DNA of 52,670 nt from a virus (IMGVR_UViG_3300034068_000720:1-52670), one strand, 5' to 3'. Shown: positions 22,241 through 36,656, numbered from the stretch's first letter. The notes: generated by a model not told the origin, from the sequence alone. Numbers and translations: made by a program.

Positions 22241-22258
22241 ATTATTTTACTAAAAGAC

Positions 22259-22287
22259 TTGACTTTTAAGTTAAACGGATATATAAT
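22259..22287 (+). promoter_or_regulatory. sigma70 promoter of tRNA array 1 leader
   Basis: TTGACT-17-TATAAT; ATG 6 nt downstream. Confidence 0.8.
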
Positions 22288-22293
22288 AACACT

Positions 22294-22359
22294 ATGCTAA
22301 ACATTAATCTATTACCAGGTAACACAGGAACAGCCTTAGAGGATACTCCAAGGCCGTAA
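22294..22359 (+). CDS. Putative leader (attenuator) peptide 1, MLNINLLPGNTGTALEDTPRP
   Basis: Starts at predicted transcription start; stop codon lies in the 5' strand of the antiterminator; composition matches array 1 tRNAs. Confidence 0.7.
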   Translation: MLNINLLPGNTGTALEDTPRP

Positions 22360-22419
22360 ATCTACACACCTAGTAAAGATTACGGCCCTGGAACTAAACA
22401 CTCCAGGGTTTTGCTTTTT
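22347..22419 (+). terminator. Attenuator 1: antiterminator overlapping intrinsic terminator
   Basis: TCCAAGGCCGTAAATCT (22347-63) pairs AGATTACGGCCCTGGA (22377-92); terminator CCCTGGA/TCCAGGG + TTTTGCTTTTT. Confidence 0.75.
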
Positions 22420-22441
22420 AGCAAGCTAGAATTTTTTTGAT

Positions 22442-22517
22442 GCGGGATTAGCTCAGTTGGTAGAGCGATACCTTGCCAAGGTATAGGTCGAGAGTTCGAG
22501 CCTCTTATCCCGCTCCA
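22442..22517 (+). tRNA. tRNA-Gly(GCC)
   Basis: Cloverleaf, anticodon loop TTGCCAA, CCA end. Confidence 0.95.
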
Positions 22518-22531
22518 AAAGAGTTTTAAAG

Positions 22532-22597
22532 TGTTGTAAAAATACAACAAAAAACTTTCAAATAAGTGTTGACAAAGTGGCTTAACTGTCGTATAAT
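22532..22597 (+). promoter_or_regulatory. Palindromic operator plus sigma70 promoter inside array 1
   Basis: TGTTGTAAAAATACAACA; TTGACA-17-TATAAT. Confidence 0.75.
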
Positions 22598-22636
22598 TGA
22601 TACTTACACAGCAACAAACGATAGAGTAGTTGTTTA

Positions 22637-22648
22637 GTTCTTTAACAA
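22637..22648 (+). promoter_or_regulatory. boxA-like antitermination element
   Basis: GTTCTTTAACAA about 35 nt after the predicted start; close to rrn boxA GCTCTTTAACA. Confidence 0.55.
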
Positions 22649-22721
22649 TTTAGTGGCAATTTTTATGTAAGCACATTAACTTGAACGGATTCTTTCCTAG
22701 TATTGCTTTTGTGTTTACCAT

Positions 22722-22796
22722 GCTCGATTCGTCTATCGGTTAGGACGCTGGCCTTTCACGCCGGAAAGAGGGGTTCGATTCCCCTATCGAGTACCA
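22722..22796 (+). tRNA. tRNA-Glu(TTC)
   Basis: Cloverleaf, loop CTTTCAC, CCA. Confidence 0.93.
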
Positions 22797-22943
22797 TTTG
22801 TTTAGTGTTATCAGGGTATCGTGTGCAGACGTGTACACTATGCGGGCCTAACTGGCGAGGGACAGGTCCTAATATAACTGCTTAGTCGCTATGGACGGAA
22901 GCGCAACTGACTCCTAAATTGAGCAGATAGCACTAAACAAATG
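22795..22943 (+). ncRNA. Unrecognised structured RNA closed by an 18-bp stem
   Basis: CATTTGTTTAGTGTTATC / GATAGCACTAAACAAATG enclosing a GC-richer 113 nt; fills the space between two tRNAs. Confidence 0.6.
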
Positions 22944-22946
22944 TAT

Positions 22947-23031
22947 GCGAGTATGGAGAAATCGGTATACTCAAGAGACTTAAAATCTCTCGTCGAAAGG
23001 CATCCCGGTTCGACCCCGGGTACTCGCACCA
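22947..23031 (+). tRNA. tRNA-Leu(TAA)
   Basis: Loop CTTAAAA, variable arm, CCA. Confidence 0.93.
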
Positions 23032-23037
23032 AGTTTA

Positions 23038-23114
23038 GGAGTGGTAGATCAGCTGGTTAGATTACCTGCCTGTCACGCAGGGGGTCGCGGGTTCGAGTCC
23101 CGTCCACTCCGCCA
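23038..23114 (+). tRNA. tRNA-Asp(GTC)
   Basis: Loop CTGTCAC, CCA. Confidence 0.95.
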
Positions 23115-23117
23115 AAT

Positions 23118-23310
23118 CCCGTTACTATTTTCGTTAAAATAGCGTTTGATTAGCGATAGAGATCCGGTGGCAGAAAACCGTAAGCGTGGGGCTGGAAACT
23201 ACCCCTACAGACTCTGATAGGCAGTATCCTTCTGCACACAGACTTTGAATAAAAAGGATGGACAGAGTAACCGCTCAATTTAAGGGCTGGTGTGGAAACC
23301 AGTAGCTTAA
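23118..23310 (+). ncRNA. Unrecognised ~190-nt structured RNA, copy 1
   Basis: Shares ordered motifs and a covarying 3' hairpin with 25559..25746. Confidence 0.65.
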
Positions 23311-23319
23311 TCCTAATTT

Positions 23320-23393
23320 TGTAGCAGTAGTAGTTACGGGCACTTCCGGCAACAGGAGGCGCTGACTAGCAGGGTGCAACTCCCTCGGCTACA
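23320..23393 (+). ncRNA. tRNA-like element (acceptor-like stem and T-arm, no D-arm, no CCA)
   Basis: TGTAGC/GCTACA stem, AGGG-TGCAACT-CCCT T-arm, long irregular central hairpin. Confidence 0.45.
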
Positions 23394-23401
23394 TCTATTT
23401 T

Positions 23402-23462
23402 GAGAGCCACATCGCCTGGATACTTCCTCCTTGGAGCACTAGGTCCTGCAACCGTGGCTCTC
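23402..23462 (+). ncRNA. Small structured RNA hairpin
   Basis: GAGAGCCAC/GTGGCTCTC outer stem; CCTGG/CTAGG inner stem. Confidence 0.45.
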
Positions 23463-23466
23463 CCTT

Positions 23467-23551
23467 ATATTAAAACACATTGACGTGTGACTGCGTCACT
23501 GTCTCAGTGAGAGGCCTGTTAAAGCTACAGGACATCAGTGTGTTTCAATAT
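23467..23551 (+). ncRNA. Stem-enclosed element directly upstream of tRNA-Leu(TAG)
   Basis: ATATTAAAACACATTGA / TCAGTGTGTTTCAATAT; same stem family as 24861..24943. Confidence 0.55.
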
Positions 23552-23555
23552 GATA

Positions 23556-23640
23556 GCCCCCTTGGCGGAATTGGTAGACGCGGCAGATTTAGGTTCTGTT
23601 ATCGAAAGGTGTGAGAGTTCGAGTCTCTTGGGGGGCACCA
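23556..23640 (+). tRNA. tRNA-Leu(TAG)
   Basis: Loop TTTAGGT, variable arm, CCA. Confidence 0.93.
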
Positions 23641-23649
23641 GGTTTTGAT

Positions 23650-23760
23650 GAGGGGGAGTGTGCATAGCGGCCCTGGGCCTACGGTGCCTACTCTTAAACA
23701 ACAGCAGAGCAGTTACGCAAACATCGTAACATAAGACTTGGAGCCACTCCTGTGCCCCTT
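23650..23760 (+). ncRNA. Unrecognised structured RNA
   Basis: GAGGGG/CCCCTT and GGAGTG/CACTCC closing stems; internal GTTACG/CGTAAC hairpin; no ORF. Confidence 0.45.
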
Positions 23761-23780
23761 AGCACTTTATAAATAGACGC

Positions 23781-24659
23781 ATGATACAATTAGATCAAGC
23801 AGAAGTTAGTTGGGCATTAAATGCACATTGTGGACATAAATGTTCATACTGTCATTCCCAATACAGTGGCGGTGAATTAGACAAGTCTGTTGATCAGTAT
23901 CTGGCAATTATTAAAAAATTGCAGGATACAAGATACCAGCACCATTCTAAGATATACTGGAAAATCAGTGGAGGGGAACCCCTACACTTTCCGCATCTAA
24001 GCACAGTATTAAAAAAGATGAAAGAAAAGCCTTGCGTCATACGACTGGATACCAGTGGTGATGACAATTGGTTTTCATTGTACGGTGTTATAAATCTAAT
24101 AGATAAAATAAAACTCACATATCATTCGTGGCAAAACGATGATGTGTTTGGTTTCGTACTAGAACAATGTCAAGAAAAGAATGTAAGTGTAACAATTGAA
24201 GTTCCATTGTTACCCGGTGCTATAGTAGAGTCTAGGGCCAAAGTAAAACATTTTGTAGACTTGGGATATGTATGCAATGAACAGGTACTACGTGACTTAG
24301 GTGGCGACTTACATCGGGGATATAGTCAACTTGATGAAAACAGAATCTATGGTAGACCCGATGATTGGGAACCAGAACTGGTTGTGTATAATCCAAACTT
24401 ACCAGATCCCAACTATGTAGATTTAAGTACTGTCAATAACACTGATCCTGTGTACACTGGTATGCCATGTTATGCAGGTGTTGATTGGTTGTACATAAAC
24501 CCTAGGGGATTTGCCTCATACAGCCAATGTGGTGGCAGGAACGAACACTTTAATGCGTTTGATCCTGCATGGCAACCACCCAGCAATTCGTTCCCTTGCA
24601 CAGTTAATCAGTGCAGGAGTGAACAGGATAGGACAAAAATAAGAATTCACAATTCTTAG
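23781..24659 (+). CDS. Radical SAM protein
   Basis: CGHKCSYC, SGGEP, C-terminal Cys cluster; TATAAATA 5 nt before ATG. Confidence 0.9.
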   Translation: MIQLDQAEVSWALNAHCGHKCSYCHSQYSGGELDKSVDQYLAIIKKLQDTRYQHHSKIYWKISGGEPLHFPHLSTVLKKMKEKPCVIRLDTSGDDNWFSLYGVINLIDKIKLTYHSWQNDDVFGFVLEQCQEKNVSVTIEVPLLPGAIVESRAKVKHFVDLGYVCNEQVLRDLGGDLHRGYSQLDENRIYGRPDDWEPELVVYNPNLPDPNYVDLSTVNNTDPVYTGMPCYAGVDWLYINPRGFASYSQCGGRNEHFNAFDPAWQPPSNSFPCTVNQCRSEQDRTKIRIHNS

Positions 24660-24667
24660 TACAGAAC

Positions 24668-24860
24668 GTTCCGAGTGTCTTCGGATAGTGTGACCCACAC
24701 GATGAGAAGTAGTGTGACAACTACGGGTGGTAGTCTTCGAACCCAAAGGCCGCTAGCAATGCGAGAACGGTCCCTGTCGGGAAGCGGGTGGAAGGAGTGT
24801 GTGATGGGTATGATAGCGTCATATCTTGATACTCTATAATTACCGCCGGGGGATGCAGAG
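24668..24860 (+). ncRNA. Unrecognised ~190-nt structured RNA
   Basis: GC-rich intergenic stretch with hairpins TGTC-TTCG-GATA, GTAGT/ACTAC, TCCC/GGGA, GGTATGA/TCATATC. Confidence 0.55.
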
Positions 24861-24943
24861 CATATTGAAGCACATTAAAGATAGGGTCGTAGCGGTTCCA
24901 TGAACTTGAGTACATACCAAGGTAGTTAGTGTGTTTCAATATG
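24861..24943 (+). ncRNA. Stem-enclosed element directly upstream of tRNA-Ala
   Basis: CATATTGAAGCACATTAA / TTAGTGTGTTTCAATATG, 18 bp with two G-U pairs. Confidence 0.55.
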
Positions 24944-24947
24944 TTTT

Positions 24948-25023
24948 GGGGGTGTAGCTCAGTTGGGAGAGCGTCTGCTTTGCAAGCAGAATGTCGCAGG
25001 TTCGATCCCTGTCACCTCCACCA
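24948..25023 (+). tRNA. tRNA-Ala(TGC)
   Basis: G3-U70 pair, loop TTTGCAA, CCA. Confidence 0.95.
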
Positions 25024-25040
25024 ATATTAAGGAGAAAGCT

Positions 25041-25208
25041 ATGAGTGATGGCGGTAAAGGATCTGCGCCAAGGCCAAAAAGTGTTGATGCAAATACATTT
25101 GCAAGCAATTGGGAATTGGCGTTTGGCAAGAAGAAATCTCAAGAAGAAATGATTGATGAAGAGATTGAAGTCGAAGGCACTGTCAAAGACAGTGAACAAG
25201 GCGGATAA
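25041..25208 (+). CDS. Small hypothetical protein
   Basis: AAGGAG SD; MSDGGKGSAPRP..; the ORF-track start lies inside the tRNA. Confidence 0.7.
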   Translation: MSDGGKGSAPRPKSVDANTFASNWELAFGKKKSQEEMIDEEIEVEGTVKDSEQGG

Positions 25209-25218
25209 GTAAAGTGCT

Positions 25219-25294
25219 GGGTCGTTAGCTCAGTTGGTAGAGCGTCTGCCTTACACGCAGAATGTCGGCGGTTCGAGCCCGTCACGACCCACCA
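25219..25294 (+). tRNA. tRNA-Val(TAC)
   Basis: Loop CTTACAC, CCA. Confidence 0.95.
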
Positions 25295-25301
25295 AAATTT
25301 A

Positions 25302-25377
25302 GCCCTTATAGCTCAGCTGGTAGAGCAACTGATTTGTAATCAGTAGGTCCCGTGTTCGAATCATGGTGGGGGCACCA
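25302..25377 (+). tRNA. tRNA-Thr(TGT)
   Basis: Loop TTTGTAA, CCA. Confidence 0.95.
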
Positions 25378-25384
25378 AATATCT

Positions 25385-25461
25385 CGGAGTGTAGCGCAGT
25401 CTGGTAGCGCACCTGGTTTGGGACCAGGGGGTCCAAGGTTCGAATCCTTGTACTCCGACCA
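25385..25461 (+). tRNA. tRNA-Pro(TGG)
   Basis: Loop TTTGGGA, CCA. Confidence 0.95.
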
Positions 25462-25466
25462 TGTTG

Positions 25467-25540
25467 GCGGGATTCGTAAAATGGTATTACCTTAGATTTC
25501 CAATCTAAAGTCGGGAGTTCGATTCTCCCATCCCGCTCCA
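25467..25540 (+). tRNA. tRNA-Gly(TCC)
   Basis: Loop TTTCCAA, CCA. Confidence 0.93.
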
Positions 25541-25558
25541 AGAACCCGGGCGCCCTTG

Positions 25559-25746
25559 CCCGTTATACAAAGGGGGGAATACTGGCAAACCCATAGACGC
25601 CACGGTGCATTGGATCTACCGCAAGGTTCCCTTTAGGAACTACTTGAGAAATCACAAAGGCAGGGACGCTAACCTGTCTAAATAGAAAAGTACGTAGACA
25701 GAGTAGACTGCTCAGTCCGGGGCCTATGTGGTGTAGGTAGCCGGAC
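25559..25746 (+). ncRNA. Unrecognised ~190-nt structured RNA, copy 2
   Basis: Homologous in motif order and structure to 23118..23310. Confidence 0.65.
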
Positions 25747-25755
25747 ACTAATTAT

Positions 25756-25831
25756 CGCGGGGTACGTCAGTGGCCAGACTGCTAGGCTCATAACCTAGAA
25801 GACGGAGGTTCGAATCCTTCCCCCGCAACCA
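25756..25831 (+). tRNA. tRNA-fMet(CAT), initiator type
   Basis: CGCGGGG start with C1:A72 mismatch, loop CTCATAA, CCA. Confidence 0.9.
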
Positions 25832-25837
25832 ACACAT

Positions 25838-25913
25838 TCCCTGATAGCTCAGTTGGTAGAGCACACGACTGTTAATCGTGTTGTCCCTGGTTCGAGCCCA
25901 GGTCGGGGAGCCA
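25838..25913 (+). tRNA. tRNA-Asn(GTT)
   Basis: Loop CTGTTAA, CCA. Confidence 0.95.
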
Positions 25914-25941
25914 AATATGCCACTAAATTGTTAAAAAACAC

Positions 25942-25970
25942 TTGACCATTCTGCGGATTTCATGTATAAT
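25942..25970 (+). promoter_or_regulatory. sigma70-type promoter
   Basis: TTGACC-17-TATAAT. Confidence 0.65.
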
Positions 25971-25998
25971 AGCGTTATTATACAGCAGAAAGAGCACC

Positions 25999-26400
25999 AT
26001 GGAATACCACATTGAAGCAGGTCCTAAAACACGCCGCTACATTGAGGCCATTCTGCCCAGCATGATGACTCAACTGGGACTGAACCGTAGTCGTCGCTTG
26101 TTAATGATCAAAGTGGATCGTGACCTTGAGGACCAAGGTTCCACCATACCAATGTTGGGAATTGATACCTTTTTGGTGGTACTCAAGCCCACACGTAATA
26201 TCTTAAATTTAGGCATAACCCTGGCACACGAGCTTACCCATGTAGCGCAATTTGCCAATGGTACTTTGCAGGTAACCCCAAAAGGTAAAAAATGGAAGGG
26301 CAAGTTCTATCCGACAGCGCACCCTTACTTGGAACAACCGTGGGAAGTGCAGGCGTTTGCTAGACAAGAGATTGTTTTCAGAAAAGCAATAGAAAAATAA
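25999..26400 (+). CDS. Putative Zn metallopeptidase
   Basis: TLAHELTHVAQ (HExxH), PWEVQA. Confidence 0.75.
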   Translation: MEYHIEAGPKTRRYIEAILPSMMTQLGLNRSRRLLMIKVDRDLEDQGSTIPMLGIDTFLVVLKPTRNILNLGITLAHELTHVAQFANGTLQVTPKGKKWKGKFYPTAHPYLEQPWEVQAFARQEIVFRKAIEK

Positions 26401-26415
26401 TAGTTAAATAATACT

Positions 26416-26622
26416 ATGAATATCTCAAGAGCTGAACAAAGTAATATTCGCTACAGCCAAGAGCAGTATCGTCTGCAACAGATCCAATCTGAAAATTTAC
26501 AAACCAAATATCATCAAAAAATTGTAGAACAACGCAGTTATGAAAGACTCATTGCTGAACGGGTTAGTCGTAATCTTCGTTTAGATTTAGACAAAGGCCG
26601 CAACGTAGACATTGAATGTTAA
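26416..26622 (+). CDS. Hypothetical protein
   Basis: TAAATA-N5-ATG; ends DKGRNVDIEC. Confidence 0.6.
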   Translation: MNISRAEQSNIRYSQEQYRLQQIQSENLQTKYHQKIVEQRSYERLIAERVSRNLRLDLDKGRNVDIEC

Positions 26623-26631
26623 GGAAGTATT

Positions 26632-27087
26632 ATGCCTTGGATTGAAAATGTAAGCCTGGGTGATATCCCAAAAGCCAAACACCACAACGCAGGTGAGAAT
26701 AGTATGCTGATTCAAATTGTTGACCCAGATATGACTTTTCCTGCACCTATGCACCAGTTCAAAGAAACACACCAGTTCAAGTTCTTAGATCTTGAAGGAC
26801 CCGACGCTTACGGACATGAATTTAAAGTTACCGATGAGCAGGCGGAAAGTCTGGTTCAGCTCTTGCAACATGCCTTGGCTAATAGAATGAATGTTGTTGT
26901 GCATTGTGTTGCAGGTGTTTGCCGTAGTGGTGCAGTCTGCGAAGTTGGAGTCATGATGGGCTTTGATGACTGTGAAGCATTTCGTAGTCCCAACCTGCTG
27001 GTCAAGCACAAGATGATGAAGTACTTAGGCTGGACTTACGATGAAAATGAACCACATTCGATCAATGGTGATGCAACCGATTGGTAA
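26632..27087 (+). CDS. Protein-tyrosine/dual-specificity phosphatase-like protein
   Basis: VHCVAGVCRS (CX5R), PNLLV. Confidence 0.85.
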   Translation: MPWIENVSLGDIPKAKHHNAGENSMLIQIVDPDMTFPAPMHQFKETHQFKFLDLEGPDAYGHEFKVTDEQAESLVQLLQHALANRMNVVVHCVAGVCRSGAVCEVGVMMGFDDCEAFRSPNLLVKHKMMKYLGWTYDENEPHSINGDATDW

Positions 27088-27090
27088 GCA

Positions 27091-27261
27091 ATGAACTGGC
27101 TACGTTATAGTGGAATATGGGTTACATTGGTTTGTAACCCATATCATTGGCGAGTTTCGTTTAGAAATGAATCTGACTCGGCTTGGCCAGATACCAAAGA
27201 ATACTCAATACAATTAGTATGTGTATCAGTTCGTGTTGTCATTGACAACGGCAGTTATTAA
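27091..27261 (+). CDS. Small hypothetical protein (56 aa)
   Basis: Open frame MNWLRYSGIWV..VIDNGSY filling the gap. Confidence 0.55.
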   Translation: MNWLRYSGIWVTLVCNPYHWRVSFRNESDSAWPDTKEYSIQLVCVSVRVVIDNGSY

Positions 27262-27995
27262 AGACTCTTATCCATTAGCTTTTCGTAACCTGCCCAGTCC
27301 CACTCTACCAACAAGAACATTAGGATCTTGCTGTAGCCTGGGACTTTTCTTGCGGCATGGCAATACTCGGAATTGTTAAACACAAAAGTATTTGACTCTG
27401 TTTCTCTATAGGCATCTATCAAGAATGATTCTTTTGTAGGATCAACTGTTAGTCTTTCATATCCCCAACCAAGACTTGCATCTGGCTTTGGATGTAACCA
27501 AAAAGTTGGTTCTGGATTTTCATCGTGTAGCATTACACGCAAGGAAGTTGGTACACCTGGGTACTGCTCATCTAGGTCACGATGCAGGCCAATGGGGAAT
27601 CTATTTTCCCAGCACTTAGCATGGATAACGTTCTTGATTGGTAGGTGCTGATACAGTTGTTCAAACAGCTTGGGAAACTCTTTAGCACCATCAACTATCA
27701 CATGTTGCATGGATGTGTCGTCAGTGGGAGTCATGTACCAACCGCGCCAATTACAACCATCTTCTGTGTACTCGTCCTTGAACCAGTCTTCAGCGGCAGC
27801 TTTTGCCCTAGCTTCTTCTCGATCAAAAGGATATCCGTTTGTTTTTTTCAAACGTAGTACATTTCTGGATTTTTCATTGAACATATCCACAAAGTGTTCA
27901 TCAGGTATAATCCGCGGAATGTCTAGTACAACATGCGGAATGTTCTTGTATTTTTCGCCCAAGTGGCGGGGGTAGTTGTCGTTAATGTGTGCCAT
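27258..27995 (-). CDS. Fe/2OG oxygenase-like protein
   Basis: IGLHRD, FVFNN..YCHAA; start 5 nt after TAAATA. Confidence 0.55.
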   Translation of the reverse strand: MAHINDNYPRHLGEKYKNIPHVVLDIPRIIPDEHFVDMFNEKSRNVLRLKKTNGYPFDREEARAKAAAEDWFKDEYTEDGCNWRGWYMTPTDDTSMQHVIVDGAKEFPKLFEQLYQHLPIKNVIHAKCWENRFPIGLHRDLDEQYPGVPTSLRVMLHDENPEPTFWLHPKPDASLGWGYERLTVDPTKESFLIDAYRETESNTFVFNNSEYCHAARKVPGYSKILMFLLVEWDWAGYEKLMDKSL

Positions 27996-28033
27996 GCAGA
28001 TATTTAGCATCGATGATTGTGCTATATACTGAT

Positions 28034-28711: not shown

Positions 28712-28717
28712 CGTCTA

Positions 28718-29839: not shown

Positions 29840-29840
29840 A

Positions 29841-30347
29841 ATGAGTTTTATTGAATCAGTTAAAGGTGCATTACCAGACTACGCAAAAGATACCAAGTTA
29901 AATCTTGATGCTGTCCTGTTGCGTAGCACATTAGATGCAGATGTGGCCATGGGTTGTGCTGTAGCCGCACTTGCCGCAACAGGCAACGGCAAAATTCTAT
30001 CGGTAATTTTAGCAGATGCTCCAGTACACGCAGAGTCGGCACTGACCGCCGCAAGCATTATGGCACAGAACAATGTATGGTATCCATATGTTGAGATGGC
30101 CGATGATCCTAGTCTAAAAGGATTGCCTGCACAGTTACGTATGAACGCCATTGCGTCACACGGTGGAACTACCAAGAGCAACTTTGAAGCATTTAGTTTG
30201 GCAGCTAGCATTGTTGGCAAGTGTCACTTCTGTGTAAAAGCACATTACGAAACATTGAAGACAGAAGGCTACACAGTGGAACAACTTCGTGACATTGGTC
30301 GGATTGCCAGTGTTATGAATAGTGTAGCAAAAGTGCTGAACAGTTAA
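29841..30347 (+). CDS. ahpD: Alkyl hydroperoxide reductase AhpD
   Basis: LPDYAKD, MAQNNVWY, CHFCVKAH. Confidence 0.92.
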   Translation: MSFIESVKGALPDYAKDTKLNLDAVLLRSTLDADVAMGCAVAALAATGNGKILSVILADAPVHAESALTAASIMAQNNVWYPYVEMADDPSLKGLPAQLRMNAIASHGGTTKSNFEAFSLAASIVGKCHFCVKAHYETLKTEGYTVEQLRDIGRIASVMNSVAKVLNS

Positions 30348-30348
30348 T

Positions 30349-31092
30349 ATGTTTACAGAAAAAGTTACATGGGTTCATCACTGGAGTGATCGTACATTCA
30401 GTTTTAAATGCACTCGCAATACTGCATTCAGATTTGTTGCTGGCGAATTTGCCATGATTGGTTTAATGATTGACGGCAAGAGAGTTATTAGAGCTTATAG
30501 TGTGGTAAGTCCACCATGGGCAGAAGAACTAGAATTCCTTAGTATTAAAATTCAAGACGGTGAATTGACCAGTAGGCTACAACATATAGAAGTTGGCAGT
30601 GAAGTTGTCGTCATGCCTAAAGCTACAGGCACATTAGTTAACAGTGCATTAACACCTGGCGGTGAACTATGGATGCTGGCCACTGGCACAGGGCTTGCTC
30701 CTTTTATGAGCTTGATTCGTGATCTAGAAACATTGGAAACATGGACTAAGATTCATATGGTTCATAGTGTTAGACATAGTTCAGATTTAGCGTATAACGC
30801 AGATTTAACATCTGCATTTAAACTTCATCCGCAAGATGGGGAATTGCACGAAATGGTTCATGCGGTATTAGAATATCATCCTATACTTACAGGGCAAGGA
30901 GAGCATAGGATTACAACGCAACTTGCCCATCACCACTTGCCCATAGACACAGATACAGATAAAATCATGGTCTGTGGTAATTTAGAATTTAATCATCAAG
31001 TTGCTGATTGGTGTCGAGCACAAGGCATGACTGAAGGAAGCATACGTGAACCAGGAACATTTGTTGTAGAAAGAGCATTTGTAGAAAAATGA
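30349..31092 (+). CDS. fpr: Ferredoxin--NADP+ reductase
   Basis: RAYS, ATGTGLAPF, MVCG, ERAFVEK. Confidence 0.92.
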   Translation: MFTEKVTWVHHWSDRTFSFKCTRNTAFRFVAGEFAMIGLMIDGKRVIRAYSVVSPPWAEELEFLSIKIQDGELTSRLQHIEVGSEVVVMPKATGTLVNSALTPGGELWMLATGTGLAPFMSLIRDLETLETWTKIHMVHSVRHSSDLAYNADLTSAFKLHPQDGELHEMVHAVLEYHPILTGQGEHRITTQLAHHHLPIDTDTDKIMVCGNLEFNHQVADWCRAQGMTEGSIREPGTFVVERAFVEK

Positions 31093-31117
31093 AAACGATT
31101 ATCGTAAAGGAAATACA

Positions 31118-31513
31118 ATGCTAGAATGTTTGATTTTAGGTGACAGTATTGCAGTTGGCACACACCAATTCCGGCAAGAGTGTGTGCTAGTGGGTAAGGG
31201 TGGCATCAACTCTTGGCAATTCAACAAGAACTACGCCAAGAAAATTGAGCCGGCTAATACAGTAATCATCAGCTTGGGTTCTAACGATCATGATGGTGTA
31301 AACAGTTTCAAGGAACTGTTGGCCATGCGACAACGGATAGAAGGCAAGCGAGTATTTTGGATCATGCCTGCCATCAAACCACACATTCAAGACATGGTGC
31401 AGATCATTGCCAAAAATTATGGTGATACAGTACTGCCCATCACCAAGTTACAGCCTGACAAAGTACACCCAAGTTGGGCTGGCTACAACGAAATTGCAAG
31501 TACTACTAAGTAA
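31118..31513 (+). CDS. SGNH/GDSL hydrolase-like protein
   Basis: LGDSIA, LGSND, DKVHP. Confidence 0.8.
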   Translation: MLECLILGDSIAVGTHQFRQECVLVGKGGINSWQFNKNYAKKIEPANTVIISLGSNDHDGVNSFKELLAMRQRIEGKRVFWIMPAIKPHIQDMVQIIAKNYGDTVLPITKLQPDKVHPSWAGYNEIASTTK

Positions 31514-31517
31514 GGGC

Positions 31518-32105
31518 ATGATTACTCAATTTCCAATTCTTATTTTAGCAAATTATAGAACAGGATCAACAGCACTGCTCCATAGTATGGCCAGCGAATA
31601 CAGTTTAGAACGTTTTTCAGAACCGCATCTTAGGCCTGAGTCGATGCAGACATTGTCTGATAAGATTGAAAATAAACAAAATGATTCTATTATTAAATTC
31701 ATGCCTGATCAAATTGTCAAATATCAAATATATCAATACTTTTACAACAGCGATTGCTATAAAATTAAACTACAGCGCAGAGACAGGGTGGCTCAGATTA
31801 CAAGTTTCTATGCATCGCTTATAAGTGGAAAATGGCATGAATATAAATCAGTGCCACCCACTAAAAAATATTCTATTCCGTTTAACGATGAAGTTGCCGA
31901 TCGTGCAATTGATCAAATACTACATAACGACAAATTGTTCGAGGAAATGGATATTAAATTTGACCAAGAATTATTTTATGAAGATTTGAATTTAGAAAGT
32001 ACCCCTTTTATTTCTAAGTTACCTAGCTTAATAAATTATAATAAAATTTATCTATACTTGGAACACAAATTGCAGATCCAATCTGAGCTGGCTACAAAGA
32101 GCTAG
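31518..32105 (+). CDS. Sulfotransferase-like protein
   Basis: ANYRTGSTALL, FSEP, LQRRD..QITS, FYEDL. Confidence 0.65.
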   Translation: MITQFPILILANYRTGSTALLHSMASEYSLERFSEPHLRPESMQTLSDKIENKQNDSIIKFMPDQIVKYQIYQYFYNSDCYKIKLQRRDRVAQITSFYASLISGKWHEYKSVPPTKKYSIPFNDEVADRAIDQILHNDKLFEEMDIKFDQELFYEDLNLESTPFISKLPSLINYNKIYLYLEHKLQIQSELATKS

Positions 32106-32127
32106 TGAGTAATACAAAATAACTACC

Positions 32128-32176
32128 GTTGTATTTTTACAACACCGGTTGACAAACTAATTTTTTGTGCTATAAT
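32128..32176 (+). promoter_or_regulatory. Palindromic operator plus sigma70 promoter
   Basis: GTTGTATTTTTACAAC; TTGACA-16-TATAAT with extended TG. Confidence 0.65.
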
Positions 32177-32196
32177 AGTTCTTTAAAAGGATTTCT

Positions 32197-32409
32197 ATGT
32201 TGACACTTAAACAACGAGCCGCAATCGAAGTGGCAAAAATTTTCATCTTGGCAATAGTTATTGGCACAGGTACTGGCATTTTGCTTAATACTGTGCCACT
32301 GGCAATCATTGGCATTGGTGCATGTATCATCATGTTGGTGTTTGGTACCAAGATGATTTATGATACAAAGCTTTCACAACTGGAAGCAGAAGAAAAATTA
32401 AAAAGTTAA
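32197..32409 (+). CDS. Small two-helix membrane protein
   Basis: AAGGA SD; two hydrophobic segments. Confidence 0.7.
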   Translation: MLTLKQRAAIEVAKIFILAIVIGTGTGILLNTVPLAIIGIGACIIMLVFGTKMIYDTKLSQLEAEEKLKS

Positions 32410-32436
32410 ATTTTTTCACTATAAGTCAAATAAAGG

Positions 32437-32465
32437 TTGACAAGTAGACTAAGTAAGTGTATAAT
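32437..32465 (+). promoter_or_regulatory. sigma70 promoter of tRNA array 2 leader
   Basis: TTGACA-17-TATAAT; ATG 7 nt downstream. Confidence 0.8.
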
Positions 32466-32472
32466 GATTACT

Positions 32473-32586
32473 ATGATGCAAAACATTTCTTATCAATCGC
32501 AAAGTTGGTGCTCTAAGCAGAGTATAAGCTTCTGTGCCTCTAAGTTTATGTCTTATCGTCATATTTCAGGAGCATGTCCAGGATAA
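32473..32586 (+). CDS. Putative leader (attenuator) peptide 2, MMQNISYQSQSWCSKQSISFCASKFMSYRHISGACPG
   Basis: Leaderless start; last codons form the antiterminator 5' strand; composition matches array 2 tRNAs. Confidence 0.75.
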   Translation: MMQNISYQSQSWCSKQSISFCASKFMSYRHISGACPG

Positions 32587-32638
32587 AGTAATCTAGCCAT
32601 TACTAACACCCTGGACTCGAAAGGCTCCAGGGTTTTTT
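32576..32638 (+). terminator. Attenuator 2: antiterminator overlapping intrinsic terminator
   Basis: GTCCAGG/CCTGGAC plus AGTAAT/ATTACT; terminator CCCTGGA/TCCAGGG + TTTTTT. Confidence 0.8.
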
Positions 32639-32652
32639 ATTGATAGGAAAAA

Positions 32653-32814
32653 ATGAAATCAGGTAACAAGAAATTAAAAGAAGTTGAGTGGATTCGACAG
32701 CACACGTTAACACAAGAGCAGACTAAACAACTGATTCTAAACAAGTTAAAACGTGCTGAAGAAATGCATATCGCTTTTAAACGGCAGGAGATGTTGGTTC
32801 AAAAACATCGTTGA
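32653..32814 (+). CDS. Small basic hypothetical protein (53 aa)
   Basis: AGGA SD; first ORF after attenuator 2. Confidence 0.6.
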   Translation: MKSGNKKLKEVEWIRQHTLTQEQTKQLILNKLKRAEEMHIAFKRQEMLVQKHR

Positions 32815-32918
32815 TAGCAAAGTGTGTATAGGTAACGAGGACCTAGCCTGCACTTAAAACATGGGCAAACGGGCGGCGACTAGGATGAAATCCCTTGTGT
32901 GGGAGGAAAAATTAGATC
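32815..32918 (+). ncRNA. Possible structured RNA
   Basis: GC-rich intergenic stretch; TAGGT/ACCTA and GGAT-GAA-ATCC hairpins. Confidence 0.4.
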
Positions 32919-32974
32919 GTATTAAAGCATTCTTTAAGAACAGGCAGCCTAAGTATTTTAGAGTGCTTTAATAC
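32919..32974 (+). ncRNA. Stem-enclosed element
   Basis: GTATTAAAGCATTCT / AGAGTGCTTTAATAC, related to the array 1 stems. Confidence 0.45.
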
Positions 32975-33004
32975 ACACATTTGCAAGAGTGTGTTAGAAA
33001 CATG

Positions 33005-33033
33005 TTGACAATCAACATGCAAAGCCTTATAAT
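33005..33033 (+). promoter_or_regulatory. sigma70 promoter directly upstream of array 2 tRNAs
   Basis: TTGACA-17-TATAAT; -35 lies inside palindrome CATGTTGA-CAA-TCAACATG. Confidence 0.7.
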
Positions 33034-33041
33034 AAGATTAT

Positions 33042-33116
33042 GGGCTAATAGCTTAATGGTAAAGCAGTCGACTCATAATCGATTGAGTGTAGGTTCAATT
33101 CCTACTTAGCCCACCA
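33042..33116 (+). tRNA. tRNA-Ile2(CAT), lysidine type
   Basis: CGACTCATAATCG anticodon arm and GGTTCAA T-loop resemble bacterial Ile2; Met cannot be excluded. Confidence 0.8.
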
Positions 33117-33125
33117 AACAATTTA

Positions 33126-33210
33126 GGAGATGCCGCCGTAATGGTATGGCAGGGGACTGTAAATCCTCCGACTTCGGTCATAATAGGTTCGATCCCTATC
33201 ATCTCCACCA
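33126..33210 (+). tRNA. tRNA-Tyr(GTA)
   Basis: Loop CTGTAAA, variable arm, CCA. Confidence 0.93.
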
Positions 33211-33214
33211 ATTT

Positions 33215-33288
33215 GTATCCATAGTGTAATGGCAGCATCGCGGTCTCCAAAACCGTCAGTCTAGGTTCGAGTCCTAGTGGGTACGCCA
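33215..33288 (+). tRNA. tRNA-Trp(CCA)
   Basis: Loop CTCCAAA, CCA. Confidence 0.93.
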
Positions 33289-33295
33289 AATAATA

Positions 33296-33387
33296 GGAAA
33301 GTGATGCAGGTGCGTTGGTGCGCCGACCAGCCTTGAAAACTGGGTTCTCAGAAATGGGATGGGGTTCGACTCCTCCGCTTTCCGCCA
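33296..33387 (+). tRNA. tRNA-Ser(TGA) with 8/4 cloverleaf
   Basis: 8-bp acceptor, 4-bp T-stem, 6-bp D-stem, loop CTTGAAA, G73, CCA. Confidence 0.85.
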
Positions 33388-33390
33388 AAT

Positions 33391-33466
33391 GCCAAGATAG
33401 CTCAGTTGGTAGAGCACCGGTCTGAAGAATCGGGTGTGGTTGGTTCGATCCCAACTCTTGGTACCA
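33391..33466 (+). tRNA. tRNA-Phe(GAA)
   Basis: Loop CTGAAGA, CCA. Confidence 0.93.
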
Positions 33467-33473
33467 AATTAAT

Positions 33474-33549
33474 GTGGGTGTGTACTGAATGGTTAGGTAG
33501 CGGATTGCAAATCCGTTTTATGCAGGTTCGATCCCTGTCACCCACTCCA
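33474..33549 (+). tRNA. tRNA-Cys(GCA)
   Basis: Loop TTGCAAA, U73, CCA. Confidence 0.93.
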
Positions 33550-33558
33550 AAATATTAC

Positions 33559-33632
33559 TGGGGGTTAGTTAAATGGTATAACCGCGGATTTTGATTCCGC
33601 TGTCACAAGTTCGATTCTTGTACCCTCTGCCA
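33559..33632 (+). tRNA. tRNA-Gln(TTG)
   Basis: Loop TTTTGAT, CCA. Confidence 0.92.
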
Positions 33633-33651
33633 AATTTATCAGGAGTAACGT

Positions 33652-33774
33652 ATGAACTGGGAAGCATCTAACAAAATTAACGAAAGGGCAATCCTAGAAT
33701 GGACCCGAATGTGTAAAGCATACCGGGAGTATCTTTACCTCGGAAGATCTTCATCGCTATCGTATAATGGATAA
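33652..33774 (+). CDS. Possible 40-aa ORF overlapping tRNA-Arg(GCG)
   Basis: AGGAG SD; MNWEASNKINERAILEW.. Confidence 0.4.
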   Translation: MNWEASNKINERAILEWTRMCKAYREYLYLGRSSSLSYNG

Positions 33775-33827
33775 TACACCAGTTTGCGGAACTGGGAATT
33801 TAGGTTCGATTCCTGATGGCGGTACCA
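33753..33827 (+). tRNA. tRNA-Arg(GCG)
   Basis: Cloverleaf, loop TTGCGGA, CCA. Confidence 0.88.
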
Positions 33828-33841
33828 ATATAAATATTTCA

Positions 33842-34585
33842 ATGAATCCAAATTTATTAATAATCAAAGACATTGTAGGAACACCATTGATAACCAAGTT
33901 TAGAGGAGTAGATTCTGAATCTCGTTTCAATCATAATCTGGCCAATACTCCTGGCTTTAAAGCTGAATGGGCCAACTTTCCAATCACCTATAGTTTAAAC
34001 AGCAACTACTATCGTTGCCCCGAATGGAAAGACATAGAGTGGGATAAAAGTGTTTTGTTGTTAGGCGACAGTTGGGCATTTGGCCAGGGGCTGGATCTTC
34101 CTTCAACCATCGCCAGCAGACTTAGTCATGAGCTAAACGGGATACCTGTGGTCAACCTTGGGCAAACTGGTACCAGCTGGACATTTTCCTGGATTAATTC
34201 AGTTAGATTAGTTGAAGCTGGAATTAGGCCCCGGGCCGTGATTTATATTTGGACGCATACTGCACGTTACGCTCAGTTGCTAGAAAACAACATAACACAC
34301 TCGCATGGGGCATGGGACGTTGACCAGCCAGGCTTAAGCCGAGAATATGCCATGGATCCGGTGCATTCTATGAACATGAGTATAGAGATTTTAAGATCAA
34401 TTCGCACAATGTGGACTTGTCCACAACTGCATTACACTTGGAGTAAGCATGTTGAGTTGCCAGGAGTACACTATCTTGGTAACTCAGAACTTGACAAAGC
34501 TCGTGATCTTATACATCCTGGTCCCAGATCAACTGCACAGTGGGCACGATCTATGGCACAGGAATTGTCAAGTAAAATTAACTAA
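33842..34585 (+). CDS. SGNH-like hypothetical protein
   Basis: LLGDSWAFG, VNLG..G, DLIHPG; TATAAATA-N5-ATG. Confidence 0.65.
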   Translation: MNPNLLIIKDIVGTPLITKFRGVDSESRFNHNLANTPGFKAEWANFPITYSLNSNYYRCPEWKDIEWDKSVLLLGDSWAFGQGLDLPSTIASRLSHELNGIPVVNLGQTGTSWTFSWINSVRLVEAGIRPRAVIYIWTHTARYAQLLENNITHSHGAWDVDQPGLSREYAMDPVHSMNMSIEILRSIRTMWTCPQLHYTWSKHVELPGVHYLGNSELDKARDLIHPGPRSTAQWARSMAQELSSKIN

Positions 34586-34593
34586 TAAAATTT

Positions 34594-34669
34594 GGGACTA
34601 TAGCTCAGCTGGTAGAGCAGTGGACTTTTAATCCATTGGTCGCGAGTTCGAATCTCGCTGGTCCCACCA
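34594..34669 (+). tRNA. tRNA-Lys(TTT)
   Basis: Loop CTTTTAA, CCA. Confidence 0.95.
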
Positions 34670-34670
34670 A

Positions 34671-35171
34671 TTATTCAGAAGGTTTATCTATATTAATAGA
34701 AATAGATACTCTGTCACCAGATCCGGTGTTTATACCAGCTCTGTGATGCATGTCTTTTGAAAATAAAAACCATGTGCCTGTTTCGCAGTTGTGCTTGGTC
34801 CACCGGTTACCAATTAGTAATTCCAATGGAGGGTGACTTGGTTTACAATTAACATAATACACTAAAACTTTATCTCCTGAGTGTAAATGATAGTGTGACT
34901 TCATTATACCTCCGGTTAATGTAATATTATACCAACTTATCATTATTTGATCAGGTACAACCAAGTGCTTTAAGCAATCTAGTACTGGTGCAAATTCAGG
35001 CCAAAGATGCGGGTTGGCACCGGGGTTTGTTCGGGCTCCTGCGTGAGATTCCACTATTCTTTCAAAATGTTTACTAGTAGGGTTAATCATAGCGATAGTC
35101 TTATCAGTGGAAGTATCCATGCATCGTTTCATCAATGCAGTATTATCAATATTAAGACGTCCAGTTAGCAT
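34671..35171 (-). CDS. Fe/2OG oxygenase-like protein
   Basis: SWYN, SHYH, MHHRAGIN..DRVSISINI; TAAATA-N5-ATG. Confidence 0.7.
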   Translation of the reverse strand: MLTGRLNIDNTALMKRCMDTSTDKTIAMINPTSKHFERIVESHAGARTNPGANPHLWPEFAPVLDCLKHLVVPDQIMISWYNITLTGGIMKSHYHLHSGDKVLVYYVNCKPSHPPLELLIGNRWTKHNCETGTWFLFSKDMHHRAGINTGSGDRVSISINIDKPSE

Positions 35172-35199
35172 AAAATTATTTAGTGCAGACTTTCTATAT

Positions 35200-35274
35200 G
35201 GTGATATAGCACAGTGGTAGTGCATCTGCTTCATACGCAGAGTGTCGTAGGTTCAAATCCTACTATCACCACCA
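35200..35274 (+). tRNA. tRNA-Met(CAT), elongator type
   Basis: G1-C72 pair, loop TTCATAC, CCA. Confidence 0.88.
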
Positions 35275-35283
35275 AAATATTAT

Positions 35284-35359
35284 GGAGTTGTTAGTGTAAA
35301 GGTTAACACCACGGATTGTGATTCCGTTAATATGGGTTCGATTCCCATACTTCTCCCCA
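35284..35359 (+). tRNA. tRNA-His(GTG)
   Basis: G-1:C73, loop TTGTGAT, CCA; two U-U mismatches in acceptor stem. Confidence 0.85.
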
Positions 35360-35385
35360 ATATATAAGTATACAACGTAATTTAC

Positions 35386-35461
35386 ACCGCTATAGCTCAG
35401 TTGGTAGAGCACCGCCTTGATAAGGCGTAGGTCCCTGGTTCGAGTCCAGGTGGCGGTACCA
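35386..35461 (+). tRNA. tRNA-Ile(GAT)
   Basis: Loop TTGATAA, CCA. Confidence 0.93.
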
Positions 35462-35464
35462 ATT

Positions 35465-35662
35465 TTATTGTTTGTCTATCTTCTTGGCGATTTCGTGAGC
35501 CGTTTTAATTACCTTTTTAGGAAGGTCATGTGCAGGTTTTTCACCGTAGCCGTATTTCTTTTTGGCCACTGCCATTCCTACAGCATAAGGATTGTCTACT
35601 TTTTCTTCTACAGGTACGTCATTGATAATGTCAATGTATTTTCTTAGTAAGTTGCCACTCAT
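35465..35662 (-). CDS. Small hypothetical protein
   Basis: AAGGA SD; LRKYIDII, NPYAVGMAVAKK. Confidence 0.65.
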   Translation of the reverse strand: MSGNLLRKYIDIINDVPVEEKVDNPYAVGMAVAKKKYGYGEKPAHDLPKKVIKTAHEIAKKIDKQ

Positions 35663-35730
35663 GATCAAATTCCTTTACAATATTTAACACCGTTAAATAA
35701 AGTATACTCATACTTTCGTACGAGTATCGT

Positions 35731-35805
35731 CGGTCCTTAGTTCAATGGATAGAATGCTTGGCTTCGAACCAAGTGGTGTGGGTTCGATTCCTGCAGGACC
35801 GGCCA
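35731..35805 (+). tRNA. tRNA-Arg(TCG)
   Basis: Loop CTTCGAA, CCA. Confidence 0.92.
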
Positions 35806-35811
35806 GTTATT

Positions 35812-36144
35812 TTAGCGCAGACCGCGAGCCAATCGCATTGGAATAACAGCGGCAATTTCGTCGTAGTCATCCATGTCAATCACATCGTCGGTGCCAACTT
35901 CAATTATTTTTTCAACCAAGAAGTGCAGTAGTGTGTCACTGACAACATCTTCGCGTACCAGTTCTAGTATGCGGATAAGTGCAGGAATATTAAAGCTGAC
36001 AGCAGGACCGTAGGCTTCTTTGGTTTCTACCATTGATTCATCTTCAGTTTCGCCATTGGTATCTGTTGTAGTACCATTTCTATAATGTAGTACATATTTA
36101 GACTTGGGTAAAATTGTTTTGTTAGATTTTCTGTAGTATGCCAT
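35812..36144 (-). CDS. Hypothetical protein
   Basis: AAGGA SD; IPALIRILELVRED. Confidence 0.65.
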   Translation of the reverse strand: MAYYRKSNKTILPKSKYVLHYRNGTTTDTNGETEDESMVETKEAYGPAVSFNIPALIRILELVREDVVSDTLLHFLVEKIIEVGTDDVIDMDDYDEIAAVIPMRLARGLR

Positions 36145-36231
36145 TTGGTTTCCTTTGTAGTTACTTAGACCATCTATTTAAAATTACAAAATGAAAACAT
36201 CACACTACTTTAGCCGATCTAGCAATTTGTC

Positions 36232-36260
36232 TTGACAAAGATCAATAAGTATCGTATAAT
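36232..36260 (+). promoter_or_regulatory. sigma70 promoter upstream of tRNA-Ser(GCT)
   Basis: TTGACA-17-TATAAT. Confidence 0.7.
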
Positions 36261-36281
36261 AAACAAATAGCAAAGAACACA

Positions 36282-36369
36282 GGAGCATTGGCCGACCGGT
36301 TAAGGCAACAGATTGCTAATCTGTCACTGCGTAAGTGGTGAGTAGGTTCGATTCCTACATGCTCCGCCA
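36282..36369 (+). tRNA. tRNA-Ser(GCT)
   Basis: Loop TTGCTAA, variable arm, CCA. Confidence 0.93.
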
Positions 36370-36393
36370 ATTTTTACAACCAGAAAGACTCAG

Positions 36394-36549
36394 ATGATTA
36401 AACCAGGCAAAACATTCAAACTTAGCAAATCAACCAAGCGCATGATGTGCAGTATTGTTGACACTAAATCTCGCAATCAATACAAAGCAATGATGATTCA
36501 AGCCGAGCTTGCTGCCAATGTTATCATCAAACGCGAACCACGCAAGTAA
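36394..36549 (+). CDS. Small basic hypothetical protein (51 aa)
   Basis: MIKPGKTFKLSKSTKRMM..MIQAELA. Confidence 0.6.
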   Translation: MIKPGKTFKLSKSTKRMMCSIVDTKSRNQYKAMMIQAELAANVIIKREPRK

Positions 36550-36581
36550 TTTTCTACACAGGGGTTAGTTGATTGAATTAT

Positions 36582-36656
36582 CTGGCGTTAGTACAATGGA
36601 TAGTACATAGAGCTTCTACCTCTAGAATGTGGGTTCGATTCCTGCACGCCGGACCA
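36582..36656 (+). tRNA. tRNA-Arg(TCT)
   Basis: Loop CTTCTAC, CCA. Confidence 0.92.

Follow-up and report, generated by a model that had tools for sequence, protein, structure and literature searches.

Two tRNA arrays and the modules that precede them

The DNA analysed here, referred to as the window, is the entire IMG/VR virus record IMGVR_UViG_3300034068_000720 (52,670 bases). ARAGORN (default settings unless stated) finds 26 transfer RNA (tRNA) genes in two clusters on the same strand, and each of these arrays is preceded by a module of ~120–170 nucleotides (nt) composed of a sigma-70-type promoter, a short open reading frame (ORF) and an intrinsic terminator. The modules have the anatomy of trp-type transcription attenuators, and the residues encoded by each short ORF match the set of tRNAs downstream beyond chance in this phage. 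The completeness estimate of the record is low; since related records reach 285 and 316 kb, with completeness of 86–91%, the window is a fragment of a jumbo phage. The public sequencing runs listed for it, 19 lake or freshwater DNA metagenomes and one metatranscriptome (share 0.06), are a lead only. In searches for cultured relatives, a DNA search gave only tRNA-Asp matches in five records, and protein and distant-DNA searches gave no match.

Both modules follow the same plan (Table 1). The first ATG is the seventh base past the -10 hexamer, and in both leaders the ATG lies 7–8 bases past it, at or within one base of the predicted transcription start. The last codons of each ORF form the 5' strand of an antiterminator, and the two terminators share the stem CCCTGGA/TCCAGGG, a pattern with exactly two matches in the 52,670-base record (none for the reversed control). 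A first-pass annotation, made from the sequence alone, had described this succession of sigma-70 promoter, ATG at the predicted start, short ORF ending in an antiterminator strand and shared terminator stem, and it was recovered in full at both arrays, with slight adjustments to some coordinates. Array 1 carries, in order, the tRNAs Gly-GCC, Glu, Leu-UAA, Asp, Leu-UAG, Ala, Val, Thr, Pro, Gly-UCC, Met and Asn. The second module does not adjoin its array: 404 bases separate its terminator from the first tRNA, and they hold a 53-amino-acid ORF, a conserved structured RNA and a consensus promoter.

Table 1. Features of the two leader modules, the tRNA arrays and their surroundings (positions in the window)
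Feature	Position	Strand	Remarks
Leader-1 promoter, TTGACT-17-TATAAT	22259–22287	+	11/12 consensus; kept in relatives
Leader ORF 1, apparently leaderless	22294–22359	+	MLNINLLPGNTGTALEDTPRP + TAA; 21 codons; stop 22357–22359
Leader-1 region 1:2 hairpin (anti-antiterminator)	22333–22354	+	GCCTTAGAG / CTCCAAGGC; 90% of cells paired, 2 pairs changed on both sides
Leader-1 antiterminator	22348–22391	+	last codons and stop (CCAAGGCCGTAAATCT) pair with AGATTACGGCCCTGG, overlapping the terminator 5' arm; 8/9 arm bases paired upstream
Leader-1 intrinsic terminator, CCCTGGA-loop-TCCAGGG-TTTT	22386–22412	+	stem 22386–22408; 30 bases before tRNA-Gly(GCC)
tRNA array 1	22442–25913	+	12 tRNAs (ARAGORN)
tRNA-Gly(GCC), first of array 1	22442–22517	+	sole array-1 tRNA without its own promoter
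Internal promoter just 3' of tRNA-Gly(GCC)	22569–22597	+	12/12 consensus
Radical-SAM-like gene	23781–24659		
Dual-specificity phosphatase-like gene	26632–27087		
Peroxiredoxin-like/AhpD-like/ferredoxin-reductase-like trio	28884–31092		named from translations alone
Leader-2 promoter	32437–32465	+	12/12 consensus
Leader ORF 2	32473–32586	+	MMQNISYQSQSWCSKQSISFCASKFMSYRHISGACPG + TAA; 37 codons; ATGATG from 32473
Leader-2 antiterminator	32576–32616	+	GTCCAGG at the ORF end pairs with CCTGGAC of the terminator 5' arm
Leader-2 intrinsic terminator, CCCTGGA-loop-TCCAGGG-T6	32609–32638	+	stem 32609–32632
53-amino-acid ORF with Shine-Dalgarno sequence	32653–32814	+	first gene past attenuator 2; no family match
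Conserved structured non-coding element	32825–32960 (approximate)	+	compensatory stem changes in 10 relatives
Promoter directly 5' of the first tRNA of array 2	33005–33033	+	12/12 consensus
tRNA array 2	33042–36656	+	14 tRNAs by default ARAGORN; 15 including Ser-UGA
tRNA-Ser(UGA), 27th tRNA	~33301–33387	+	sub-threshold tRNA-clan match and relaxed-score ARAGORN; missed by default ARAGORN
Internal promoter 5' of tRNA-Ser(GCU)	36232–36260	+	12/12 consensus
D-Ala-D-Ala carboxypeptidase gene	36573–37514		

The leader-1 terminator helix is 100% paired in all 12 distinct sequences from related phages. Two of its positions vary between CG, UA and UG, giving a covariation score reached by none of 500 shuffles, and the same two positions also covary, through compensating changes, with the strand at the end of the ORF. 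This second, outer antiterminator helix is paired in 95.8% of cells (23–26 of 500 shuffles score as high; controls in which one strand was slid reach at most 73%). A third helix, between codons 14–16 and the ORF end, is 90% paired, which completes the classical four-region layout. The stop codon always lies inside the antiterminator strand. When folds are ended before the 3' arm of the terminator, the 5' arm pairs upstream in 9 of 12 leader-1 and all 12 leader-2 RNAs; in five of those nine no partner is more than 10 bases from the stop codon, and the other 3 of the 12 leader-1 RNAs take the anti-antiterminator form. A diverged leader 2 (from relative G006) keeps the same logic with other letters, AGGGTCC/GGACCCT and CCCTAGG/CCTAGGG. 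RNAalifold on MAFFT alignments recovers the outer antiterminator helix only; the inner part is misaligned, so per-sequence folds were relied on.

The two leaders of the window were also folded with every base masked as far as 15 nt beyond the codon chosen to occupy the ribosomal aminoacyl site (A-site). For leader 1 the terminator is predicted when no ribosome is present or when the A-site has reached codon 16 or beyond, and the antiterminator at A-site codons 4–14, before the 3' arm of the terminator exists. For leader 2 the terminator forms only once the A-site is at codon 32 or later, and in every earlier state the antiterminator prevails; an untranslated leader 2 therefore defaults to read-through in these folds. 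A stall anywhere in the first two-thirds to four-fifths of either leader would thus be expected to give read-through, the stall-sensitive zones being taken as codons 2–14 of leader 1 and 3–30 of leader 2.

Both modules are present in ~30 related IMG/VR jumbo-phage contigs. Leader 1 was found at 19 loci through the protein gene that neighbours it upstream and in 22 stretches through a DNA pattern. Leader 2 was found in 12 and 18 stretches through two DNA patterns, the first of which enforced part of its conservation; the 18 stretches include one (L098) with neither leader nor tRNA. There are 12 distinct homologous ORFs for leader 1 (60–66 nt) and 12 for leader 2 (111–132 nt). All of these lengths are multiples of three, and the differences stem from several separate insertions or deletions, every one of which keeps the frame. 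Of the 24 distinct leaders, 20 place the ATG 6–7 bases past the -10 hexamer; the others are L030 (5 bases), two G011-type copies of leader 2 (6 bases past a TACAAT -10) and G006 (10 bases). Single-base codon differences are synonymous in 173 and non-synonymous in 198 cases for leader 1 (257 and 291 for leader 2). Variable columns fall about equally often on the three codon positions (13/13/13 and 25/25/29), which implies that selection on the peptide itself is weak. The reading frame is under constraint, the peptide sequence only mildly.

The even spread of variable sites would also fit a structured 5' leader that is not translated at all, i.e. an element for processing or stabilizing RNA, or a terminator switched by a bound protein or RNA, in which the open frame is incidental. 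Leader 2 can indeed fold as a long hairpin in which the 5' AUGAUG pairs with CGUCAU, and by our own arithmetic a 21-codon frame would be open by chance in ~4 of 10 random sequences. However, an incidental frame does not account for 24 of 24 distinct ORFs whose lengths, despite several independent insertions and deletions, differ only by whole codons, for the regular spacing of the ATG, for a stop codon held within the antiterminator strand, or for a match with the tRNA arrays that is defined at the level of codons (see below). This alternative is very improbable. The trp-type anatomy proposed in the first-pass annotation is upheld by the conserved ORF, the antiterminator strand at its end, the intrinsic terminator and the covariation in relatives.

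Leader composition and the tRNAs downstream

In leader 1, 19 of 21 residues belong to the amino-acid set served by array 1, the other two being isoleucine and arginine. In leader 2 the corresponding count is 31 of 37, all 11 members of the array-2 set are present, and there is no Leu, Glu, Asp, Val or Thr. These counts agree with those given in the first-pass annotation. The absence of the five amino acids holds for the window and its nearest relative but not for the family. Among all 92,378 divisions of the 19 amino acids other than Met into groups of 9 and 10, only 10 match or exceed the observed 46 of 54 residues in the leader's own set, and when the last five codons of each ORF are left out the real division is the single best (41/44; 1 of 92,378). 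Compared with 307 random short ORFs from the six frames of the window, 0.65% are as rich in set-2 residues as leader 2, and 0.33% are as poor in them as leader 1. At the codon level, 17 of 20 codons of leader 1 (P = 0.002) and 27 of 36 of leader 2 (P = 1.5e-5) can be decoded by the leader's own array, against a null model based on the codon usage of long ORFs in the window. Coverage of isoacceptors is marginal (9/11, P = 0.08; 11/13, P = 0.04). That the leader peptides mirror the downstream tRNAs, as first proposed, therefore exceeds chance in the window, and the match recurs across the family.

The residues that fall outside the sets are not placed at random. They make up 3 of 40 positions in the stall-sensitive zones and 5 of 14 in the ORF tails (P = 0.02). 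The tails are strands constrained by RNA pairing, where a stall, according to the masked-ribosome folding, could not give read-through. Codon GC content was rejected by inspection as the cause of the match: AT-rich codons for Leu, Asn and Thr abound in leader 1, and leader 2 has many codons for Cys, Trp, Arg and Gln. A reading of leader 2 as a Cys/His zinc-knuckle was also rejected; the second Cys is not kept in relatives.

The check proposed in the first-pass annotation, in which leader composition is set against shuffled array pairings in related phages, gave a divided result. ARAGORN misses some tRNAs, and Tyr genes were regained by BLAST in several records, so that absences of tRNAs are soft. 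In seven phages carrying both modules, codons decodable only by the leader's own array outnumber those decodable only by the other array, 105 to 12 for leader 1 and 161 to 47 for leader 2; many of the 47 were judged to lie in the terminal GA(C/H)PG. Real pairings exceed permuted ones for both leaders in the seven phages (P = 0.009) and, for leader 2 alone, in a set of 13 (P = 0.003), in permutation tests that, like the Fisher tests below, ignore shared ancestry and are treated as suggestive only. Two amino acids track individually. Pro codons occur in the sensing part of leader 2 in five of five phages with a tRNA-Pro in array 2 and in none of eight without (P = 0.0008). CTA or CTG codons accompany tRNA-Leu(UAG) in leader 2 (9/9 vs 1/4; P = 0.014) and, less clearly, in leader 1 (2/2 vs 1/7; P = 0.08). 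In the window tRNA-Leu(UAG) has moved to array 1; there, two codons that are TTA or TTG in close relatives are CTA in leader 1, and leader 2 has lost its codons for Leu. The remainder of the check failed: cross-pairing of leader 1 in nine phages is not significant (P = 0.32), array 1 hardly varying among them, and eight amino acids showed no tracking (in leader 2: Asn, Asp, Glu, Val, Thr; in leader 1: Lys, Cys, Ile; each P > 0.25).

Two further arrangements in relatives bear on this relationship (coordinates of relatives are our own oriented coordinates). In G021 (L100; 316 kb, 91% complete) a single merged array of 27 tRNAs (7724–18485) has one module at its head, whose leader, MMKTLRPYSISFMQKEPTSLLWHPTCLRNDAIGPEGSE, contains 19 amino-acid types and is followed by a leader-1-like terminator. 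The tRNA-Gly(GCC) of this phage lies in mid-array without a leader. The diversity of the leader is by itself marginal (P = 0.04–0.06). The attenuator model would predict just such a replacement of two skewed leaders by a single mixed one. A third type of module, with the leaderless mini-ORF MMKHFSIAGSISIR, occurs in G002 (7593–7743), G005 (1545–1695) and G016 (11471–11621). Three of its 12 codons are ATA (ATA makes up 1.7% of codons; P = 9e-4), and it directly precedes tRNA-Ile(UAU), the reader of ATA. This tRNA is 92 nt long with an unusually long extra region, and in the minimum-energy fold the leader can pair with its 5' part. The third module has a hairpin over the stop codon and no T-tract terminator, so its mechanism may differ.

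A proposed attenuation mechanism and its alternatives

At the sequence level the modules combine a 5' ORF with a predicted start, an intrinsic terminator, a mutually exclusive antiterminator and codon enrichment, and from this combination we infer the following course of events. Host RNA polymerase would start at the near-consensus promoter and produce a transcript beginning at or within one base of the AUG, so that a ribosome could load without a Shine-Dalgarno sequence and trail the polymerase. If the mini-ORF is read quickly and in full, the ribosome would cover the last codons, i.e. the 5' strand of the antiterminator, the terminator would form and transcription would stop. An earlier hold-up at a codon whose tRNA is scarce or uncharged would leave the end of the ORF free to pair with the 5' arm of the terminator, and the polymerase would read into the tRNA genes. 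Since the stall-sensitive codons are almost all read by tRNAs of the following array, transcription of the array would go up when its own tRNAs limit translation and down once they are restored, so that the supply of tRNA would be under feedback control. That each module is a transcription attenuator of the ribosome-mediated (leader-peptide) type which heads a phage tRNA array, and raises its transcription when tRNAs of its own set limit translation, is a reading whose chances we consider evenly balanced. Attenuation as such has good support from anatomy and from the comparison of relatives; the putative sensing of codons as a panel is statistically supported and unproven.

Several observations weigh against this reading, among them the even spread of variable sites, the disregard of shared ancestry in the tests across phages, the non-significant result for leader 1, the amino acids that show no tracking and the missing T-tract of the third module, all given above. 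In addition, the transcription start is predicted from promoter geometry alone. In the G006 clade the ATG of leader 2 lies 10 bases past a degenerate promoter, so that this version may not be leaderless. Each amino acid is represented mostly by 1–3 scattered codons and never by a run, so sensitivity to any one tRNA may be low. Finally, what directly follows attenuator 2 is the 53-amino-acid ORF and the structured RNA rather than a tRNA.

The scattered codons are also what would be seen if the modules were generic translation-coupled attenuators that report only whether a ribosome initiates on and completes the leaderless ORF, and thus overall translation capacity or the availability of 70S ribosomes, with the likeness in composition a historical accident. 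The structural evidence for such a device is identical to that for codon sensing, eight of the ten per-amino-acid tracking tests are null, and leader 2, when it is not translated, reads through by default in the mask folding. However, an accident would have to produce a partition match at the level of 1e-4 to 1e-5 and concentrate the out-of-set residues where stalls cannot signal, and the tracking of Pro and Leu(UAG), the mixed leader of the merged array and the ATA-rich third module would all be unexpected. We therefore consider a generic attenuator unlikely.

A further difficulty for attenuation of the arrays is posed by internal promoters. The first-pass annotation had described the arrays as gated by the attenuators and had itself named the promoters at 22569, 33005 and 36232 as a possible bypass. 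All three match the consensus at 12 of 12 positions. Of the mapped relatives that carry a leader-1-type module, all 15 have at least one sigma-70-like promoter after tRNA-Gly(GCC), scoring 12/12 in 12 phages and 11/12 in the remainder. The promoters after tRNA-Gly(GCC) and before array 2 mean that most tRNAs can arise without read-through. Attenuator 1 would therefore have exclusive control of tRNA-Gly(GCC) only; for this tRNA, which has no promoter of its own, the gating may stand, and for the rest it was overstated. Read-through transcripts from attenuator 1 would supplement the output of the remaining array-1 tRNAs. Given the internal consensus promoters, the modules would tune the expression of the arrays rather than switch it on or off.

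With read-through dispensable for most tRNAs, the modules might instead be self-contained small genes, in which promoter, ORF and terminator make a small peptide or a dual-function small RNA (cf. the attenuator-derived rnTrpL) and the tRNAs come from their own promoters or from leaky termination. Strong promoters and good terminators would yield abundant RNAs of 115–165 nt, the loop of the leader-1 terminator (ACTAAACAC) is near-invariant, and the synonymous share of codon differences exceeds what we take to be the expectation for random single-base changes (about one in four). However, in L022-type relatives tRNA-Gly(GCC) begins six bases past the T-tract with no promoter between, and needs read-through. 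Complementarity between the ORF end and the terminator arm is kept by compensatory change and would have no role in a simple small gene, and the peptides match no protein family and vary freely. This possibility is decidedly unlikely, and attenuation remains the preferred reading.

Other start-proximal ATG ORFs were seen in relatives, namely MFSKKGF/MFSKKEF and MCNVTTHSR.... The MFSKK ORFs were rejected as attenuators; they lack a terminator, and the Shine-Dalgarno sequence of the following gene lies within them. The structured element downstream of attenuator 2 is supported by compensating stems such as TAGG/CCTA, CCAG/CTGG and GTAGC/GCTAC. An Rfam search with this element gave no match; it may represent a stable RNA comparable to those, still unexplained, from the tRNA region of T5. 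A 36-amino-acid ORF at 32861–32971 was rejected as coding; the conserved bases fall in another frame in G006.

The tRNA complement of relatives shows two other peculiarities. A tRNA with anticodon CUA, labelled Pyl by ARAGORN and resembling an amber suppressor, occurs in G016 (1130–1205) and G020 (2254–2328), preceded by a 12/12 and a 10/12 promoter, respectively; none was seen in the window. In G006 (9093–9167) and G020 (11562–11636) ARAGORN reports a four-base anticodon (ttac) where other relatives carry tRNA-Leu(UAA), which could be an eight-base anticodon loop or an artefact of the caller.

The genes around the arrays encode accessory enzymes: radical SAM proteins, a P450, a subtilase, peroxiredoxin-like proteins and a D-Ala-D-Ala carboxypeptidase. 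Some of these, together with a dual-specificity phosphatase-like gene, lie between or among the tRNA arrays (Table 1). Five perfect TTGACA-N16-17-TATAAT promoters (12/12) are found on the + strand within 18 kb, at 22569, 32149, 32437, 33005 and 36232. This density, far above chance by our own arithmetic, suggests that the region relies heavily on the host sigma-70 holoenzyme.

Relation to known regulatory systems

The reasons for the large tRNA sets of phages are debated and include matching of codon usage, replacement of degraded host tRNAs and escape from anticodon nucleases; to our knowledge, the regulation of phage tRNA arrays is largely undescribed. No leader-peptide attenuator of tRNA genes came up in full-text searches of a literature that included few subscription journals and no supplements. 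The modules may be the first known ribosome-mediated attenuators on tRNA genes, in which the leaderless mini-ORF would act as a panel of codons that samples the decoding capacity of its own array in a closed feedback loop, possibly responding to loss of host tRNAs from any cause; this we put forward tentatively, with a confidence just short of even. A link to starvation or to the anticodon nucleases PrrC, VapC or PARIS is speculation. If the proposal is true, the phage monitors decoding capacity and feeds back on tRNA transcription, the tRNA pool itself joins amino-acid biosynthesis as a target of classical attenuation, and the number of amino acids monitored rises from one or three to at least ten. 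The module could also serve as a compact reporter of tRNA availability.

The closest counterparts are the attenuators of amino-acid operons, such as trpL, hisL, leuL and pheL, and the multivalent thrL and ilvL of enterobacteria. The phage modules share with the trp/his-type leaders a short ORF close to the promoter, 1:2, 2:3 and 3:4 hairpins that exclude one another, an intrinsic terminator and the position of the ribosome as selector, and like the thr/ilv leaders they sample more than one amino acid. Unlike them, the modules are borne by a phage, precede tRNAs rather than biosynthetic enzymes and have an apparently leaderless ORF. The phage leaders also lack runs of regulatory codons, and sample 10–11 amino acids once to a few times each.

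Control of the translation apparatus is known from the pheM leader, which senses one amino acid and controls pheST (Phe-tRNA synthetase), and from T-boxes, which bind uncharged tRNA directly and need neither ribosome nor ORF; neither is known to control tRNA genes. The phage modules share with both the setting of translation-apparatus genes by the supply or charging of tRNA, but unlike a T-box the phage element carries a conserved ORF and has no T-box match in Rfam. A search of Rfam over 21500–37500 (E ≤ 0.1) gave no leader family and no T-box, the only matches being to the tRNA clan and to Plastid-ycf2 opposite tRNA genes. The same was seen in three relatives (E ≤ 1), with two additional matches to Plastid-psbl-rps4 and one to RFPL3-AS1_2, far below gathering scores.

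Among phages, the tRNA region of T5 (AY543070) is similar in that its tRNAs lie among strong promoters, small ORFs and stable RNAs to which no function has been assigned. As a precedent for attenuation it was rejected. The 18 kb of the tRNA-bearing strand were scanned and yielded one promoter with a start-proximal ATG and a short ORF, with no T-run after it, and T5 RNA2H, which follows promoter P13b, has no 5' ORF.

Two bacterial systems resemble parts of the proposed mechanism. The Anabaena trn operon, with 26 tRNA genes, is induced by translational stress via the repressor TrcR (PMC10272220). It is likewise an accessory tRNA array whose transcription increases when translation is impaired, but its regulator is a ribbon-helix-helix repressor acting at the promoter rather than a leader peptide and terminator (PMC10272220). 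In mycobacteria, leaderless polycysteine short ORFs are described as cysteine-responsive attenuators (10.1101/834739). These ORFs differ from the phage leaders in their runs of one codon (Cys), their cysteine-related targets and their bacterial rather than viral setting; as in the modules described here, a short ORF that begins with the AUG at the 5' end of the transcript acts as a sensor for the operon downstream (10.1101/834739).

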